From Escherichia phage HMD-P10: 64,000 nucleotides of DNA. The notes below the pieces were generated by a model. That model had not been told where the DNA came from and ran no database searches. It worked only from the letters and a program-made list of their open reading frames with translations. The DNA is taken from the sequence record PV469800.1. One strand, written 5' to 3'. Made by a program: the position numbers and the translations under genes. Shown here piece by piece: positions 14,788 through 62,360 of this stretch (positions within the stretch are counted from its first letter, which is position 1; each line of letters begins with the position of its first letter).

Positions 14788-14811
14788 CAGGGGCTATAAA
14801 GCCCCTTTTAA
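14788..14811 (+). terminator. rho-independent terminator
   Basis: GGGGCT-ATAA-AGCCCC followed by TTTTAA. Confidence 0.55.
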
Positions 14812-14825
14812 GAGGAAAATTCATA

Positions 14826-17192
14826 ATGGCAGATTACAAATTGAGTCAGTTAAACTCAATCGACACAATTCGTTCAGAAGACCTATTGCATATCAGAGTT
14901 AAGAAAAGACCTGAAATGTTGGGTGACGAAGACCGTAGAATGACCTATCAAGACTTCTTAGCTTCCTTCAAACTAGAAAGGTTTGTTCAGATTGCTGGGA
15001 GTAATATGACTGGGGATTTAGGTATTGTCAAGCTACTTTACGGTGGAAAGATTGTATTTGACCCTACAGGCTCTTCTGAGATTACTATTGGGGATGTTTT
15101 AAAGACTTTTAAACTTAATGCAAGTGGCCTTAAACTCACTATTGCAGACTCTTCAAGGTCAGCAACTGTTTATCACACTCTGAATAAGCCAAGCCCTAAT
15201 GAGCTTGGTATGAGAACTAATGAAGAGAATGATGCAAGATATGCAAGGCTTGCTGCAAATAACATCTTTACATCCCAACAAACTATCCAAGCAAATGGTG
15301 AAGGTATTAGGTTAAAAAACTCTTCTGAGAACTCACCGTTGTATATCAGAGGTCAGGATAGTGCTGGTGAGAATAGATGGTATATCGGTAATGGTTCAGG
15401 GGGTGATAATGTTACTATCCGCAACCACAAGACAGACTGTGAAGTTATTCTATCTAGTGTCGTGGCTATCAATAAAACATTAAGCATCACTGGTCAAGTC
15501 AAACCTTCAGATTTCTCTAACTTAGATGCTAGATACTTCACTCAGACAGTTGCTAATCAGAGATTTGCACAGTTAGCTGGTAATAACACTTTTACAGGTG
15601 CTAATACATTTAGGACTATGAGTATTATCTCAAATGCTGCTGCTATCACACTACAATGTGCATCAGCAAATGAATCCCTGTATCTACTTGCAAAAGATTA
15701 TCAAGGTGGTAACTTATGGTATGTTGGTAAAGGTAGCTCAGGTGATGGTGTAACTATCTACAACTATACCACTAACACCTCTTTGGTCTTAGATGCTGCT
15801 GGAGTATCAGCAAATAAAAATGTCAGAATCACTGGTCAAGTTCAACCTTCAGATTGGGCTAATATTGACTCTAGATACATTCCAGCAGGGACTTTGAGTA
15901 ACCTTGCTAAACTGAGTGATGTGAATACTTTTAGGTCTGCGCAAGTTATTAAACAGAATGGTCCAGTGTTGCAGCTAAGGAATACTATTCAGGACAGGGA
16001 GCTATATATCTCTGCTCATAATGCTGATGATGTTAGAAAGTGGTACATCGGTAACGGGGATGCTAACCCAGCAAGGCTTATTATCCACAACGACAGAACT
16101 GCAACTACGATTTATATGCAAGACGATTTCTTGCTGAATAAAACAGTTAGAATCACTGGTCAAGTTCAACCTTCAGATTTCTCTAACTTAGATGCTAGAT
16201 ATTATACGCAATCTGTAGCAAACTCTAGGTACATGCTTGCTGTCTCTACTGGTTCTGGTACAGAGGCTGGTGATGGTGATGGTATTGCTTGGAATGCTAG
16301 GACTGGTCTGTATAATGTTACAGGGAAATCTGGTGGTTCAACACAGCTAGTTTATCAAATGTTTATCGGTGGTGGCTCAACACCAACTGCACAGTTGAAG
16401 TTTAGCTACAGGAATGGTGGTGTCTGGTATAGGACAGCAAGAGATGGCTATGGATTTGAGAATAGCTGGGCTAAAATCTATACAGACCAAGATAAGCCAA
16501 CCCCTTCAGATATCGGTGCATACACTAAAGCTGAAACTGACCAGAAGATTGCAGAAGCAATTAGTGACTCTACAGACCTGAATAAAATCTATCCAGTAGG
16601 TATTGTAACGTGGTTTAACAGTAATGTTAACCCTAATACAGCACTTCCTGGTCTAACTTGGACGTACCTGAATAATGGTGTTGGCAGAACTATTAGGATT
16701 GCAGCAGCAAATGGTTCAGATGTTGCTACAACTGGTGGTTCAGACTCTGTAACGTTATCTGTTGGTAACTTACCTTCACACACACATAGTTTCTCTGCTA
16801 CCACTTCATCATTTGATTATGGTACTAAGACTTCTAGCACAACTGGTAACCATAACCACAACAGAGGTAACATGGAAATTTCTGGTGTGGTTGGTTGGTT
16901 CAGAAGTGATAACAGTGCATTCTACACTGCGAGCGGTGCGTTTCAGATGGGTAGTTCTCAGGCTTCACATGGCTTCACAGGCTCTAACTTCACTTACGGT
17001 GCTGCTGCTGATTTCCACGCGTCAAGAACTTGGACAGGTGCAACCAACACAACAGGTAACCATAGCCATACTGTAGGTATTGGTGCTCACAGCCACACAG
17101 TTAGTGGTAACACAGGTGGTACTGGTTCTGGTTCAGCATTTAGTGTTACTAACCAGTTCTACAAGTTAATGGCTTGGGTAAGAACTGCTTAA
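14826..17192 (+). CDS. long tail fibre protein with internal repeats and His-x-His repeat tip
   Basis: 788 aa from ATG at 14826 (RBS AGAGGAAAA); three ~85 aa internal repeats (ITGQVxPSDxxNxDxRY); C-terminal tip paralogous to 13604..14779 with HxH motifs. Confidence 0.65.
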   Translation: MADYKLSQLNSIDTIRSEDLLHIRVKKRPEMLGDEDRRMTYQDFLASFKLERFVQIAGSNMTGDLGIVKLLYGGKIVFDPTGSSEITIGDVLKTFKLNASGLKLTIADSSRSATVYHTLNKPSPNELGMRTNEENDARYARLAANNIFTSQQTIQANGEGIRLKNSSENSPLYIRGQDSAGENRWYIGNGSGGDNVTIRNHKTDCEVILSSVVAINKTLSITGQVKPSDFSNLDARYFTQTVANQRFAQLAGNNTFTGANTFRTMSIISNAAAITLQCASANESLYLLAKDYQGGNLWYVGKGSSGDGVTIYNYTTNTSLVLDAAGVSANKNVRITGQVQPSDWANIDSRYIPAGTLSNLAKLSDVNTFRSAQVIKQNGPVLQLRNTIQDRELYISAHNADDVRKWYIGNGDANPARLIIHNDRTATTIYMQDDFLLNKTVRITGQVQPSDFSNLDARYYTQSVANSRYMLAVSTGSGTEAGDGDGIAWNARTGLYNVTGKSGGSTQLVYQMFIGGGSTPTAQLKFSYRNGGVWYRTARDGYGFENSWAKIYTDQDKPTPSDIGAYTKAETDQKIAEAISDSTDLNKIYPVGIVTWFNSNVNPNTALPGLTWTYLNNGVGRTIRIAAANGSDVATTGGSDSVTLSVGNLPSHTHSFSATTSSFDYGTKTSSTTGNHNHNRGNMEISGVVGWFRSDNSAFYTASGAFQMGSSQASHGFTGSNFTYGAAADFHASRTWTGATNTTGNHSHTVGIGAHSHTVSGNTGGTGSGSAFSVTNQFYKLMAWVRTA

Positions 17193-17199
17193 TCCCTTG

Positions 17200-17228
17200 T
17201 TGACTGATTGTTAAGATGGTGTTAATAT
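17200..17228 (+). promoter_or_regulatory. sigma70-like promoter
   Basis: TTGACT-17 nt-TAATAT; overlapped by 9-bp inverted repeat AAGATGGTG/CACCATCTT. Confidence 0.4.
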
Positions 17229-17271
17229 TCTTTATGGGTATTCTCACCATCTTGGCTGATGAGGTGATTAA

Positions 17272-17469
17272 ATGCCTACAATCCTAGCAATTCTTCTAAA
17301 AAATCTAGGTAGCTTCTTCTGGAAACTCATTTTATCCCTTCTAAGTGAATACATGATTGAGAAAGTGTTCTTTAGGCTTGCAAGATACCTTGCGAGTAAA
17401 ACAGACACACCTATTGATGATGAGTTCGTAGATAACTTAGAAAAAGCTTTTAAGGGGGAGAATAAATGA
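17272..17469 (+). CDS. small membrane protein (holin-like candidate)
   Basis: 65 aa, one hydrophobic segment, charged C-terminus. Confidence 0.3.
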   Translation: MPTILAILLKNLGSFFWKLILSLLSEYMIEKVFFRLARYLASKTDTPIDDEFVDNLEKAFKGENK

Positions 17470-61193: not shown

Positions 61194-61466
61194 ATGTATA
61201 CTACTAACAACGGTCGCACTTTGAACGTAACCCTGCGCCACTATGTGAACGGTGTAATGCACTTTGAGGATTTACAGGCTGAACAACACATCTTAGATTG
61301 GCAAGTAGCAGGACTGCAAAAAACTGCTACAGGATATGGGAAAAAAATCCCAACTAGCTGGAAAGTATACTACGAAGGACGTTTGCGCAGAATTTATCAA
61401 GATGTATACAGCAATAGCGCAACAAGTTACATCATGGTAAAAGGTAAAAAATTGAACTTAGTATAA
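61194..61466 (+). CDS. hypothetical protein (cassette gene 6)
   Basis: 90 aa; leader ACTAGGAGATTCGAAAATG. Confidence 0.45.
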   Translation: MYTTNNGRTLNVTLRHYVNGVMHFEDLQAEQHILDWQVAGLQKTATGYGKKIPTSWKVYYEGRLRRIYQDVYSNSATSYIMVKGKKLNLV

Positions 61467-61561
61467 AGTACTTTACAAGGGGCTTATAGTTCGATAAAGT
61501 AAGCCCCAGATAAAGAGCTTTATCACTCAATCCTAAATTGGAGATTCTAAAATGGCTATTA
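61463..61561. repeat. 99-bp perfect direct repeat (pair A, copy 2)
   Basis: Identical to 59224..59322. Confidence 0.85.
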
Positions 61562-61956
61562 ATAACCGTGAGTTATCAATCTTAAAAGCACGTTTGACCG
61601 TCAACCGGATTAATGTTATCACATCATCAGCACCGGATGAGACATTGCACAACATTATCGGGAAGATTCAAAGTGTTATCTTAGACGTTGAAAACGTAAA
61701 AAACTCATTGGCTGACGTTGCAGCAGGTATCACGCTAGACGGTGCACAATATGAAATGGCTGACATGTTAGGCAAATCTAAGGTAATGAATAAAGAGCTT
61801 GATTTAAAAATGTTTCGTTTTGCTGTTAAGGTGTGGCTATCTGTCGAGTATGACGCAAATTTTGCAATCGCTGACTTTTTTGCAACATGGTTGCAACGTA
61901 ATTTAACAAATCATGATTTTCGTGATATCTGCGATGTAATTTACGCAGAACTATAA
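61552..61956 (+). CDS. hypothetical protein (cassette gene 7)
   Basis: 134 aa; same first three residues (MAI) as 59313 gene because repeat extends into CDS. Confidence 0.45.
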   Translation: MAINNRELSILKARLTVNRINVITSSAPDETLHNIIGKIQSVILDVENVKNSLADVAAGITLDGAQYEMADMLGKSKVMNKELDLKMFRFAVKVWLSVEYDANFAIADFFATWLQRNLTNHDFRDICDVIYAEL

Positions 61957-61963
61957 AAATTTT

Positions 61964-62062
61964 TCTTGATTTTGGTTTTTAAAACAAGTAAATTACTAAT
62001 CAACGGGGAGGGAATGACCTTCCCCACTAAGTAAAATCCTTAAACTAGGAGATTCAAAAATG
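61964..62062. repeat. 99-bp perfect direct repeat (pair C, copy 2)
   Basis: Identical to 60916..61014. Confidence 0.85.
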
Positions 62063-62260
62063 GCTATTATTAACGGCTTAAACATTGAAACTACTCACAT
62101 CAAAGACATTAAAGTCGGTGATGTAGTCCTTTCCCACGGCGTAGAAAAAACTGTCACTGCAAAGGATATCAAAGAGGATTCTTTCATGGGTAGAACTCTC
62201 TTCGGTGATTCTTATTGCTTAGGTTATCTTGCAGTTTTAAAAGTTGTCAAAAATAACTGA
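62060..62260 (+). CDS. hypothetical protein (cassette gene 8)
   Basis: 66 aa; conserved leader. Confidence 0.45.
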   Translation: MAIINGLNIETTHIKDIKVGDVVLSHGVEKTVTAKDIKEDSFMGRTLFGDSYCLGYLAVLKVVKNN

Positions 62261-62360
62261 TAAAGTACTTTACAAGGGGCTTAAAAGCTGATATCTTAAG
62301 CCCCAGATAAAGAGCTTTACCACTAAATCAAGTCCTTAAACTAGGAGATTCAAAAATGAA
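62261..62360. repeat. 100-bp perfect direct repeat (pair B, copy 2)
   Basis: Identical to 59604..59703. Confidence 0.85.

Follow-up and report, generated by a model that had tools for sequence, protein, structure and literature searches.

A hairpin with the stem GGGGCT/AGCCCC occurs eight times, once as a stem variant and always on the + strand, in the 64,000-nucleotide stretch of phage DNA analysed here (the window), which comes from a Felixounavirus (a Felix O1-type phage, Ounavirinae). We judge it probable, at roughly 70%, that this hairpin forms the stem-loop in composite promoter/stem-loop cassettes carried by the Felix O1-like phages, with an architecture of the promoter-early stem-loop (PeSL) type. 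PeSLs are known from the T4-like phages RB49/phi1, T4/PST and KVP40/nt-1 (Arbiol et al. 2010, PMC2839356; Comeau et al. 2014, PMC4122927), and the design has not previously been described in the Felix O1-like group.

A recurrent hairpin behind a -35-like hexamer

The recurrence of the hairpin is confirmed. All eight copies listed in the initial annotation were found, those given as 59622, 62279 and 60229 being displaced by 1-3 nt (Table 1). Three copies have short loops, four have 17-nt loops between GGGGCT and AGCCCC, and one is a stem variant. Matches to GGGGC-N3-20-GCCCC number seven in the window against 0.10 expected, and none of 100 dinucleotide shuffles gave more than one, which places the enrichment well above chance. 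Directly 5' of the hairpin lies a -35-like hexamer in eight of eight copies; TT[TG]A[CT]A followed after 0-2 nt by GGGG occurs in the window eight times on the + strand and never on the - strand, whereas 200 Markov simulations averaged 0.5 and gave at most 3. The copies do form the single family that had been proposed.

Short stable stems in a genome of 39% GC must be G:C-rich, T-runs follow two of the copies, and a predicted terminator of Felix O1, t76, is homologous to the 14790 hairpin (PMC3185647), all of which would suit generic terminator hairpins that resemble one another by chance in an AT-rich genome. We give this explanation next to no credence, as it is refuted by the enrichment of both the stem and its -35-like flank and by the conservation of the ~90-nt cassette repeats in 289 phage records. 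Moreover, the 12 other terminator-type hairpins of the window (a count that leaves out the class-2 5'-UTR hairpins) use different stems. T-runs accompany only some copies, as had been noted: four T follow the 14790 hairpin, and A and then four T follow that at 47892, both falling below the 5-T terminator criterion of our consensus scan, whereas the 53014 hairpin and the class-1 cassettes described below have none.

Architecture of the class-1 cassettes

Five of the copies sit in ~90-nt intergenic cassettes, here called class 1, between small early genes for which Pfam gave no matches and PHROGs gave only families of unknown function. Each cassette follows a stop codon and consists, in order, of TTTACA, a spacer of 17-18 nt, TAnnnT, a conserved leader, a Shine-Dalgarno sequence and ATG. 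The hairpin covers the spacer, the -10 and the discriminator. Its G4 arm begins 1-2 nt 3' of the -35, the -10 lies in the loop and 3' arm, and the C4 arm, as the discriminator, separates the -10 from the predicted start site; in a lower helix, the -35 region AAAGTACTTTA pairs with the first leader bases TAAAGAGCTTT. The overlap of the hairpin with a promoter-like TTTACA-17-TAAAGT was borne out at 59233-59261 and 61472-61500, and the remaining class-1 cassettes have TATCTT or TAAGAT in place of TAAAGT at equal spacing. These -10 hexamers show just 3-4 of 6 consensus matches; TTTACA-N17-TANNNT occurs eight times in the window against 1.9 expected, and five of the eight are the class-1 cassettes. 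The consensus scan detected no U-tract at the class-1 hairpins, and therefore classical intrinsic termination is not predicted for them.

Table 1. Hairpin copies, cassettes and related promoter layouts in the window
Feature	Coordinates	Strand	Elements	Scores
Solitary copy between two tail-fibre genes	14784..14815	+	TTTACA 14784-14789; GGGGCT-ATAA-AGCCCC 14790-14805; TTTT 14806-14809; Shine-Dalgarno AAGAGG 14810-14815; ATG 14826	-16.4 kcal/mol, z -3.3
Solitary copy between PRPP synthetase and nicotinamide phosphoribosyltransferase genes (names taken from ASO1B)	47885..47912	+	TTTATA 47885-47890; GGGGCT-TTTA-AGCCCC 47892-47907; A, TTTT	-12.7 kcal/mol
rIIA/rIIB intergenic promoter	53007..53036	+	TTGACA-18-TAGAAT; GGGGCT..AGCCCC 53014-53029, within hairpin AAGGGGCT-TCAA-AGCCCCTT 53012-53031	11/12 consensus matches; hairpin -14.2 kcal/mol, z -3.2
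Class-1 cassette A1	59225..59312	+	TTTACA 59233-59238; upper hairpin 59240-59268; -10 TAAAGT 59256-59261; lower helix 59226-59236 with 59272-59282, then leader and Shine-Dalgarno; ATG 59313	covariance model 88.7 bits; -17.4 kcal/mol, z -4.0
Class-1 cassette B1	59607..59698	+	TTTACA 59612-59617; hairpin 59619-59647; TGA and -10 TATCTT 59635-59640; ATG 59699	covariance model 88 bits
Class-1 cassette C	60212..60298	+	TTTACA 60221-60226; variant hairpin GGGGTTATC/GATAGCCCC 60228-60255, one U.G pair; -10 TAAGAT 60244-60249; ATG 60299	covariance model 75.6 bits; -18.6 kcal/mol, z -4.0
Class-1 cassette A2	61467..61551	+	TTTACA 61472-61477; hairpin 61479-61507; -10 61495-61500; ATG 61552; core identical to A1	covariance model 88.6 bits
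Class-1 cassette B2	62261..62355	+	TTTACA 62269-62274; hairpin 62276-62304; -10 62292-62297; ATG 62356; 96% identical to B1	covariance model 90.4 bits
Class-2 cassette	60922..61011	+	TTGATT-17-TAAATT, then 5'-UTR hairpin GGGGAGGG/CCTTCCCC; same leader as class 1
Further class-2 copies	58754-58846, 61957-62059, 63199-63286, 63748-63848
Leader-only repeat	61171..61196	+	CCTTAAACTAGGAGATTCGAAAATG; second copy 60990-61014
Promoter-terminator overlap	49693..49750	+	TTGACA-16-TATGAT; terminator hairpin AGAGGCTCC-TACG-GGAGCCTTT and T-run directly 3' of TATGAT	-16.6 kcal/mol, z -3.8

Conservation of the promoter signature and predicted RNA structure

The comparative set comprised 31 relatives with 136-140 cassettes, and all 136 copies assessed for orientation (window plus 31 loci) are co-oriented with the genes. 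Among 110 standard-length cassettes, TTTACA is present at the -35 in every one and the T, A and final T of the -10 are conserved in 107, 107 and 106, respectively, while positions 3-5 of the -10 and the remaining loop are free to vary. TAnnnT lies at 17 or 18 nt in 59 of 60 distinct cores, with TGn just 5' in 31. No pairing involves C5 or A6 of the -35 or T1 or A2 of the -10, and still these positions are invariant or nearly so.

The hairpin is bipartite (~20 bp in total), a 3x3 internal loop separating a lower helix of ~10 bp from an upper helix of 9 bp, and RNAalifold independently predicts both helices from 116 distinct cassettes. Across these, 99.2% of cells are paired, as against at most 62% in slid controls. 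Two-sided changes were counted in 19 cells against 3.0 +/- 1.5 in shuffles, none of 500 reaching 19, in a set that mixes paralogues with orthologues, such that the covarying cells are not independent events. The lower helix covaries between GC and UA (92/14) and upper pairs 7-9 switch as well (TA/AT, AT/TA, AT/CG/TA/TG).

A symmetric protein site would predict such inverted-repeat covariation equally, and the repeat could instead be a double-stranded DNA operator at which a dimeric phage repressor shuts the early promoters at the early-to-middle switch. The repeat covers exactly the spacer, -10 and discriminator, its half-site centres are ~21 bp apart in the cassettes and ~10 bp in the rIIA/rIIB copy (two helical turns and one), the comparison of strands by folding energy is equivocal (mean MFE -20.1 kcal/mol on the + strand and -19.3 on the - strand, with + more stable in 75 of 116 cassettes), and relatives carry an annotated 'transcriptional regulatory protein'. 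We nevertheless consider an operator quite improbable. At 14790 and 47892 the repeat is present without a promoter, and half-site spacing varies (loops of 4, 10, 11, 12 and 13 nt). Furthermore, upper pair 5 is U.G in 45 of 116 cassettes and the lower helix has a near-invariant U.G, both of which make the DNA half-sites unequal while RNA pairing is kept. The conserved mismatch and wobble of the lower helix are typical of RNA.

The initial annotation took the shared stem sequence to suggest a sequence-specific factor. This step is unsupported. Common descent explains the shared sequence, five of the copies being ~90-nt cassettes paralogous to one another. With these the rIIA/rIIB copy shares the cassette 5' half TAAAGTAyTTkACAAGGGGCTT. 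A dedicated factor of phage or host origin (an RNA-binding antiterminator or endoribonuclease, for example) would read GGGGCU/AGCCCC and coordinate all stem-bearing transcripts, and it would account for a G4/C4 that is invariant in more than 130 cassette copies (Felixounavirus and Susp/Moogle-like loci), for a six-base stem that is invariant at three orthologous solitary sites in three genera while the loops vary at every position, and for the appearance of the same stem in three different contexts. However, short all-G:C stems are expected to evolve slowly anyway, and within-genome identity follows from paralogy and inter-cassette recombination. Homologous cassettes of phiEa21-4, from the more distant genus Kolesnikvirus, have GGTG/CACC for GGGG/CCCC (UA for GC at upper pair 3) with pairing kept; five stem positions tolerate G.U and U.G variants, the distal pairs covary, and the loops are 4 to 13 nt long. 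Other hairpins of the window have unrelated stems, such as GGCTCC, GAGCCTC, GGTCTC and GGGGAC, RB49 PeSLs share the G4..C4 layout with differing inner stems, and no candidate protein was identified. Such a factor is unlikely, and it is not needed to explain the data.

Early genes of phage T7, which form an operon read by the host polymerase, are separated by RNase III sites, bipartite ~20-bp hairpins that contain an internal loop. The cassette hairpins are similar in their ~20-bp bipartite form with a central internal loop and in their early, intergenic position, whereas the T7 sites have no promoter overlap and no sequence in common with them. The hairpins might accordingly be RNase III-type sites at which read-through polycistronic RNA is cut into stable monocistronic mRNAs without termination, a reading favoured by the missing U-tract and the covariation of the lower helix. 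We find this hypothetical cleavage doubtful as the main role, since the 6-8 bp stems of the solitary copies are too short for RNase III, the rIIA/rIIB form is without the long lower helix, and in RB49 the stem-loop alone, again without a lower helix, lowered downstream expression (PMC2839356).

Solitary copies

Neither the 14784..14815 nor the 47885..47912 copy has a -10 element, and the consensus scan made neither a terminator nor a promoter call at the former. Its orthologous site is kept in 27 relatives, where the stem is invariant and the loop varies; Moogle-like loci lack the T-run. The 47892 site has 12 distinct sequence variants in relatives, again with stem conserved and loop variable, and is degraded in two of them (L016 and L017). 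Against the cassette covariance model these copies score 13.6 bits (E 1.7) and 14.6 bits (E 0.95), respectively. The rIIA/rIIB copy, with 21.3 bits (E 0.016), is the next-best + strand match of that model after the cassettes. Its hairpin lies wholly within the promoter spacer, the site carries a promoter annotation in ASO1B, and the copy is conserved in Felixounavirus and Susp/Moogle-like loci.

Proposed function of the cassettes

We infer the biochemical role of the hairpin as follows. Each class-1 cassette would be a host sigma-70 promoter interleaved with an inverted repeat, its spacer often ending in TGn. RNA polymerase using the cassette's own promoter would start at about CCCC-A, giving a transcript that holds only the 3' halves of the helices and should not fold. 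RNA arriving from upstream would hold both halves and could form the ~20-bp bipartite hairpin (-17 to -22 kcal/mol), which may attenuate or end the upstream transcript and cap its 3' end. Each small gene would thereby be insulated and supplied with an early promoter of its own. The rIIA/rIIB copy may be the same device with its hairpin compressed into the spacer, and the 14790 and 47892 copies, having a -35 and a hairpin with a short T-run and no -10, would serve only as weak terminators or RNA 3' caps.

In RT-PCR on Felix O1, two genes behind class-1 cassettes (ORF16, ORF20) and two behind class-2 cassettes (ORF21, ORF22) reach their peak at 5 min, and among the listed genes of ORFs 1-14 only ORF13 does so; ORF17, behind a class-1 cassette, is a counter-case that peaks at 25 min (PMC3185647). 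That a PeSL stem-loop blocks downstream expression comes from a single RB49 reporter experiment (PMC2839356). Our literature search for Felixounavirus TSS or Term-seq datasets found none.

Relation to known systems

The 57-bp direct repeat of Felix O1, CTTTACATGGGGCTTAAAAGTCTGTAAAGTAAGCCCCAGATAAAGAGCTTTACCACT, is the class-1 cassette, and its 39-bp repeat is the class-2 cassette; both were listed only as direct repeats (Whichard et al. 2010, PMC3185647). That study reported direct repeats of at least 24 bp and TransTerm hits, left the embedded promoter unrecognised and called secondary promoters and temporal control unknown.

PeSLs and the Felix O1-type cassettes both lie between genes and in the orientation of the genes, measure ~100 nt, combine a sigma-70-type early promoter with a G-run/C-run stem-loop between -35 and -10 or over the -10, and end in a Shine-Dalgarno sequence and ATG. 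Both cluster in a hyperplastic early region whose small genes are of unknown function, where indels between close relatives leave a single hybrid cassette. On inspection, the PeSLs of RB49 show two layouts, TTGACA-GGGG..CCCC-TATAAT and one in which the hairpin covers the -10, followed by GGAGAATCAAAAATG; this matches the published description (PMC2839356). The first layout is exactly that of 53007-53036 and the second that of the class-1 cassettes. The lineages differ, however (Straboviridae for PeSLs, Ounavirinae here), and we detected no homology: cassette blastn matches are confined to Ounavirinae, and the covariance model has no match in 50 kb of RB49. The cassettes also differ in their -35 (TTTACA), their weaker -10 hexamers and a further, covarying lower helix between the -35 and the leader. 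For RB49, promoter activity, terminator activity and mini-circle formation have been demonstrated, whereas the promoters and terminators of the present cassettes are putative.

In bacterial promoter-coupled terminators (Fletcher et al. 2026, bioRxiv 10.64898/2026.08.19.745784), the -35 is provided by the stem-loop DNA and the spacer by the T-tract, after which comes the -10. There, as proposed for the cassettes, a single stretch of DNA ends one transcript and promotes the next gene in the tandem, with physically overlapping elements; the cassettes differ in that the -35 precedes the stem, the -10 is inside the hairpin and the T-tract is absent. The bacterial geometry is seen in phiEa21-4 (GGGGG-CTTTACA-GCCCC-TTTTT..TATACT, L032 13410-13512).

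Exchange of whole genes between cassettes

Cassettes mark whole-gene swap points in Felix O1-like phages. Indels between relatives map exactly between cassettes with one hybrid copy remaining: orf97, orf170, orf52, orf66 and the block 62065-63219 are each absent from some relatives, and at the junction lies a single hybrid cassette or leader with 21-103 nt of shared repeat. Cassette B1 is the junction for the orf97 and orf170 indels, and B2 is an insertion junction in two relatives (L001 and L029). Extra genes with duplicated flanking cassettes are found at four sites, one module is tandemly duplicated, the cassette lies 5' of 14 unrelated protein families, and the class of cassette (1 or 2) carried by the same gene differs between phages. 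With ~90-110 nt of conserved sequence, cassette and leader would also act as portable homology, and inter-cassette recombination would then delete, insert, duplicate or re-promote single genes. Breakpoints at gene boundaries are also favoured by selection for intact genes.

Class-2 cassettes and other overlapping layouts

The leader-only repeat at 61171..61196 and its copy at 60990-61014 bracket orf52, which is missing from 19 relatives. At 49693..49750 a terminator hairpin lies directly 3' of TATGAT, and thus the predicted start site falls inside its 5' arm; this layout recurs at 55965-56015.

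A hairpin family preceded by a −35-like hexamer

Every copy of the recurring GGGGCT/AGCCCC hairpin listed in the initial annotation was found in the window, where the stem motif GGGGC-N3-20-GCCCC occurs seven times against a chance expectation of 0.10. An eighth copy at 60228 has the arms GGGGTTATC/GATAGCCCC, with one U.G pair. A feature absent from that annotation is a −35-like hexamer directly 5′ of all eight hairpins, which is TTTACA at 14784 and in five intergenic units that we call class-1 cassettes, TTTATA at 47885 and TTGACA at 53007. All eight occurrences of this combination are on the + strand (0.5 expected) and the − strand has none, and the remaining hairpins in the window have different stems, mostly with no adjoining hexamer of this kind. 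The original observation is thus confirmed and extended. It had also been proposed that copies followed by T-runs are terminators. The uneven distribution of T-runs is real, with four T after the copies at 14790 and 47892 and none after the cassettes or the copy at 53012, but the terminator assignment is not supported, given that even four T fall short of the five used in our scan for intrinsic terminators.

The class-1 cassette and its promoter signature

The five class-1 cassettes are intergenic repeats of 85-95 nt (repeat families D2 and D8, the former extending over 113 nt), and a covariance-model scan confines full copies to 59.2-62.4 kb. Each begins with the stop codon of a gene, followed by AAAGTAC-TTTACA, one variable base, GGGGCTTA and the loop, and continues with TAAGCCCC, AGATAAAGAGCTTTAYC and the leader CCTAAAyTGGAGATTC-AAAATG. 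The 3′ end thereby supplies the Shine-Dalgarno sequence and ATG of the downstream gene within a near-invariant leader, CCTTAAACTAGGAGATTCAAAAATG. Exactly 17 nt past TTTACA lies TAAAGT, TATCTT or TAAGAT, and therefore the predicted −10 element would span the loop and the upper part of the 3′ arm, with the C4 run as discriminator. The G4..C4 stem, of 8-9 bp, covers the −10 element in the five cassettes and lies within the spacer at 53012-53031.

For comparison, we used 30 IMG/VR loci around rIIB together with the phages ASO1B, phiEa21-4, Felix O1 and RB49. A strict pattern recovered 136 class-1 cassettes in the window and 31 relatives, all on the gene strand; this orientation follows from the promoter and ribosome-binding site and is uninformative about the hairpin. 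TTTACA is present in 110/110 standard-length cassettes, in which −10 positions 1, 2 and 6 are T (107/110), A (107/110) and T (106/110), respectively, while positions 3-5, like the remainder of the loop, are highly variable. TAnnnT is spaced by 17 or 18 nt in 59 of 60 distinct hairpin cores, and in 31 of the 60 TGn immediately precedes the −10 element. Because T1 and A2 of the −10 element and C5 and A6 of the −35 element are unpaired, their conservation is not explained by the hairpin. As far as sequence can indicate, the pattern of conservation is that expected of a working sigma-70 promoter.

Pairing, covariation and strand

Pairs were counted from the base of the stem in 60 base-anchored cores; an alignment of bare cores by MAFFT, which placed the 35-nt class out of register, was dropped. 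Pairs 1-9 are formed in at least 55 of the 60 cores, and pairs 10 and 11 are mostly open (paired in 13/60 and 23/60). Felixounavirus has G-C at pair 3, where the three phiEa21-4 cores have T-A (GGTG...CACC); T-A alternates with A-T at pair 7 (48 and 12 cores) and A-T with T-A at pair 8 (46 and 10), and pair 9 occurs as A-T, C-G, T-A and T.G.

When given a flank-anchored alignment of 116 distinct cassettes with their flanks, RNAalifold predicted, unprompted, a lower helix that joins AAAGTACTTTA, which holds most of the −35 element, to TAAAGAGCTTT, the first bases past the predicted start site. A 3x3 internal loop separates this helix from the G4C helix, and one of its pairs alternates between G-C (92 cassettes) and U-A (14). 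On this alignment 99.2% of cells are paired, compared with at most 62% in slid registers, and changes on both sides of a pair affect 19 cells versus 3.0 in shuffles (none of 500 shuffles as high), although these cells are not independent events because the sequences are related. Single hairpins have predicted energies of −12.7 to −18.6 kcal/mol (z −1.9 to −4.0), and whole cassettes fold at about −20 kcal/mol. The pairing is supported by covariation.

The evidence on which strand would carry the hairpin, and whether as RNA or as DNA, is equivocal. Wobbles in pairs 1-9 favour the + strand (42 G.U versus 1 A.C); at pair 10, however, the A.C of 25 cores would be G.U on the opposite strand and favours that strand instead. 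The + strand is the more stable in 75 of 116 cassettes, with a mean minimum free energy of −20.1 versus −19.3 kcal/mol. Given the opposite signal at pair 10 and the small energy gap, we do not take the wobble asymmetry as proof of a + strand RNA hairpin.

Solitary copies

Three hairpins lie outside the cassettes; in ASO1B one separates the two tail-fibre genes, one follows the PRPP synthetase gene (prs) and one lies between rIIA and rIIB. The rIIA/rIIB element has TTGACA-18-TAGAAT at 53007 (11/12 matches in a consensus scan), with the entire hairpin within the spacer, and it carries a promoter annotation in ASO1B. With a covariance model derived from the cassettes, the five window cassettes reach 76-90 bits and this element 21.3 bits (E 0.016), which makes it a recognisable cassette relative. 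The same model gives 14.6 bits at 47874 and 13.6 bits at 14776 (E about 1-2). These two copies have the −35-like hexamer, hairpin and four T, with no −10 element at 16-18 nt, and share with the cassettes only the hexamer and the stem. Two other candidates were set aside: a T4-like late promoter at 14790, whose loop TATAAA is not kept among relatives, and a weak model match at 20211-20244 (− strand), which is inside a coding sequence.

Across 27 loci at the fibre junction and 12 distinct variants at the prs junction, GGGGCT/AGCCCC is near-invariant while the 4-nt loop takes at least ten forms. Exceptions are the Felix O1 group, in which the stem is shifted to GGGCT/AGCCC, and two IMG/VR loci (L016 and L017), in which it is degraded. 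Moogle-like phages have the 14790 orthologue without a T-run, and in Felix O1 the fibre-junction hairpin was published as predicted terminator t76 (PMC3185647). In ASO1B, an HNH endonuclease gene (L034 47049-47565) interrupts the intergenic region that in the window (47881-47928) contains the 47892 hairpin.

Cassettes as gene-exchange junctions

When 53000-64000 was compared with the relatives by local blastn, breaks in homology were concentrated in the cassettes. There are five deletion-type junctions, where, in the relative, the two adjoining alignments overlap by one length of the shared repeat, four insertion-type junctions and one tandem duplication, of a cassette-orf97 module in one locus, each with a shared repeat of 20-131 nt. 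A three-way alignment of the orf170 junction in one relative (L004) reveals a single cassette that matches the upstream window cassette as far as the ATG and is then followed by the downstream gene.

Features of the cassette region and related elements, with positions in the window
Feature	Coordinates	Promoter-like sequence	Relatives	Overlap (nt)
Class-2 cassettes	58754-58846, 60922-61011, 61957-62059, 63199-63286, 63748-63848	TTGAyT-17-TAAATT (one copy TAATAT)		
Promoter-like site and terminator hairpin	49693-49750	TTGACA-16-TATGAT		
Promoter-like site and terminator hairpin	55965-56015	TTGCTA-17-TAAGAT		
Leader CCTTAAACTAGGAGATTCAAAAATG	58819-58846, 59674-59701, 60987-61014, 61169-61196, 62035-62062, 62331-62358, 63262-63289, 63824-63851			
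orf97 missing	59315 to 59592		2 loci	92-103
orf170 missing	59704 to 60211		6 loci	95-101
orf52 missing	61014 to 61172		19 loci	21-31
orf66 missing	62059 to 62317		3 loci	21-39
Block missing	62065 to 63219		1 locus	78
Added genes flanked by duplicated cassette	58819-58848, 62034-62062, 62260-62359, 63268-63287			

The 25-nt translation leader is common to eight genes and by itself bounds the orf52 indel, and thus the hairpin is not required for exchange. These junctions point to ordinary homologous recombination rather than to a hairpin-specific enzyme. In a more ambitious reading, the cassettes would play in phages the part that attC sites play in integrons: their bipartite hairpin, or its G4CU stem, would be recognised through structure or sequence by a dedicated enzyme of phage or host, which would excise and insert single-gene mini-circles or switch all cassette transcripts together. 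On that view the hairpin would actively direct mobility or regulation and would be more than a passive attenuator and homology patch. We regard this reading as very improbable. The initial proposal that the shared stem is recognised by a sequence-specific factor is unnecessary for the data and finds little support in them.

Fourteen unrelated protein families are found behind the class-1 cassette, and three window genes with class-2 cassettes (a second type, described below) are preceded by class 1 in other phages. The ten window ORFs flanked by cassettes all belong to PHROGs families of unknown function, with no Pfam match for any of them. In ASO1B the cassette repeats occupy a block of small hypothetical genes that follows rIIB. 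Typing, biocontrol and therapy directed at Salmonella and E. coli make wide use of Felix O1-like phages. If read as we propose, the cassettes would provide candidate early promoters for a block of uncharacterised early genes, explain why gene content in this region is a mosaic among hundreds of sequenced relatives and directly predict sites that tolerate gene-sized deletions and insertions. They might also serve phage engineering as compact, portable, insulated expression units.

Comparison with promoter-early stem-loops

The closest parallel is with the promoter-early stem-loops (PeSLs) of the T4-like phages RB49 and phi1, which are intergenic motifs about 100 bp long that end in a Shine-Dalgarno sequence and ATG, cluster beside ORFans in hyperplastic regions, and take part in gene excision and insertion by recombination and in mini-circles (PMC2839356; PMC4122927). 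One PeSL stem-loop cut lacZ expression as strongly as rrnB T1 (PMC2839356). The window cassettes likewise have a predicted sigma-70-like intergenic promoter oriented with the downstream gene, a G-tract/C-tract stem-loop between the −35 and −10 elements or over the latter, conservation over about 100 bp with a Shine-Dalgarno sequence and start codon at the 3′ end, clustering among small, functionally unassigned genes of a hyperplastic region, and cassette-bounded indels between close relatives that leave a single hybrid cassette. RB49 intergenic sequence contains TTGACA-GGGGGTCACCGATCCCC-TATAAT...GGAGAATCAAACATG and variants, which correspond exactly to both hairpin geometries of the window (in the spacer and over the −10 element), and the 3′ end of RB49 PeSLs, GGAGAATCAAAAATG, is very similar to the window leader.

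The two systems differ in that the cassettes belong to a Felixounavirus rather than a T4-like myovirus, with no detectable sequence relatedness, and in that promoter, terminator/attenuator and mini-circle activities have been demonstrated for PeSLs, whereas the window cassettes are known by sequence. The cassette covariance model found no PeSL in 50 kb of RB49, and among 50,697 phage records cassette blastn matched Ounavirinae only, with no homology to RB49 PeSLs; the cassettes are therefore an analogue and not a sequence homologue. By megablast, 58800-63300 matched 253 phage records, almost all from Felix O1-like myoviruses of Escherichia, Salmonella, Shigella or Citrobacter (best match 91% identity over the entire query), and the rIIA/rIIB junction shares 90-97% identity with named Felixounavirus genomes, Felix O1 among them. 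Records labelled ‘Staphylococcus phage SA1’ and Campylobacter are presumably mislabelled, being 94-98% identical to Felixounavirus DNA over the query stretches. Rfam 15 gave no match in the window at the gathering threshold and none in 58300-64000 at E ≤1. On the basis of these comparisons, we judge the cassettes to be PeSL-type elements in a new lineage. The PeSL design, which combines promoter, insulator and recombination handle in one unit of about 100 nt, would then have arisen or spread beyond the T4-like phages.

Our literature search found no work on start sites, transcriptomes or PeSL-like elements of Felixounavirus, and the wV8 paper contains no discussion of regulation. In Felix O1 the cassettes were published solely as 57-bp and 39-bp direct repeats, the latter corresponding to class 2, and according to the authors neither secondary promoters nor temporal regulation were known (PMC3185647). 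Their 5-min RT-PCR class, which would give indirect support for cassette activity, includes ORF16 and ORF20, which have class-1 cassettes, and ORF21 and ORF22, which have class-2 cassettes; ORF13 alone among the listed genes of ORFs 1-14 is also in this class, and ORF17, behind a class-1 cassette, peaks at 25 min (PMC3185647).

Proposed mechanism

Given a conserved, enriched hairpin family with a promoter-type pattern, a paired and covarying architecture and cassette-bounded indels, we propose that host sigma-70 polymerase would begin about 7 nt past the −10 element, so that RNA initiated at a cassette would lack the 5′ arms and remain unfolded. Read-through RNA would fold, and could be attenuated, terminated or trimmed back to the hairpin. 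This fate of read-through RNA is the least secure part of the proposal, because the cassettes have no U-tract. The same anatomy also fits an RNase III-type processing site, which we consider unlikely, and a DNA operator, which seems decidedly improbable. Bacterial promoter-coupled terminators (bioRxiv 10.64898/2026.08.19.745784) share the principle of the PeSL-type reading, but their geometry is unlike that of the window cassettes.

Other elements

Class-2 cassettes carry a GGGGAGGG/CCTTCCCC hairpin about 10 nt 3′ of the −10 element, followed by the same leader as class 1. This hairpin would form the extreme 5′ end of the mRNA, and a role as a stabiliser is possible. At 49693 and 55965, the hairpin AGGCTCC-TNCG-GGAGCCT and its T-run start 1-3 nt past the promoter-like site, with the predicted start site inside the 5′ arm; this terminator (repeat family D12) recurs at 49724, 54199 and 55991. 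Two further geometries are present in phiEa21-4 (L032 13410-13512 and 4163-4244). In the first, TTTACA lies in the loop of a GGGGG..CCCC terminator, the T-run forms the spacer and TATACT is the −10 element, which is the layout of bacterial promoter-coupled terminators, and in the second an unrelated GCCAC/GTGGC hairpin lies within the spacer of TTGACG-18-CATAAT. These overlaps suggest that interleaving of hairpin and promoter is a general habit of these genomes. The phiEa21-4 genome paper reportedly describes a precisely conserved terminator dispersed 24 times, and the GGACTCTTCGGAGTCC hairpins of this phage are consistent with that description.

Two gaps between − strand genes, 21361-21881 and 22928-23316, hold five arrays of about 10-14 units each, which read (NNACC)n on the + strand and (GGTNN)n in the gene direction, and whose period of 5 nt indicates that they are non-coding. 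Each adjoins a conserved AAAAGGTCTTTAAACAGGGTTTTT segment and a hairpin. In layout they recall either the triplet-plus-spacer arrays to which ring-shaped RNA-binding proteins bind or C-rich Rho-loading sites on antisense RNA. A further non-coding region (58398-58590), 3′ of a long terminator at 58354, carries TCATTTCAGGGTTGTGCAGGTAG... repeats, some in tandem and some dispersed (families D17 and D20), and a homologous repeat region with TTTGTGCA(T/G) motifs is found in phiEa21-4 and in Felix O1, between ORF13/14 and ORF15.
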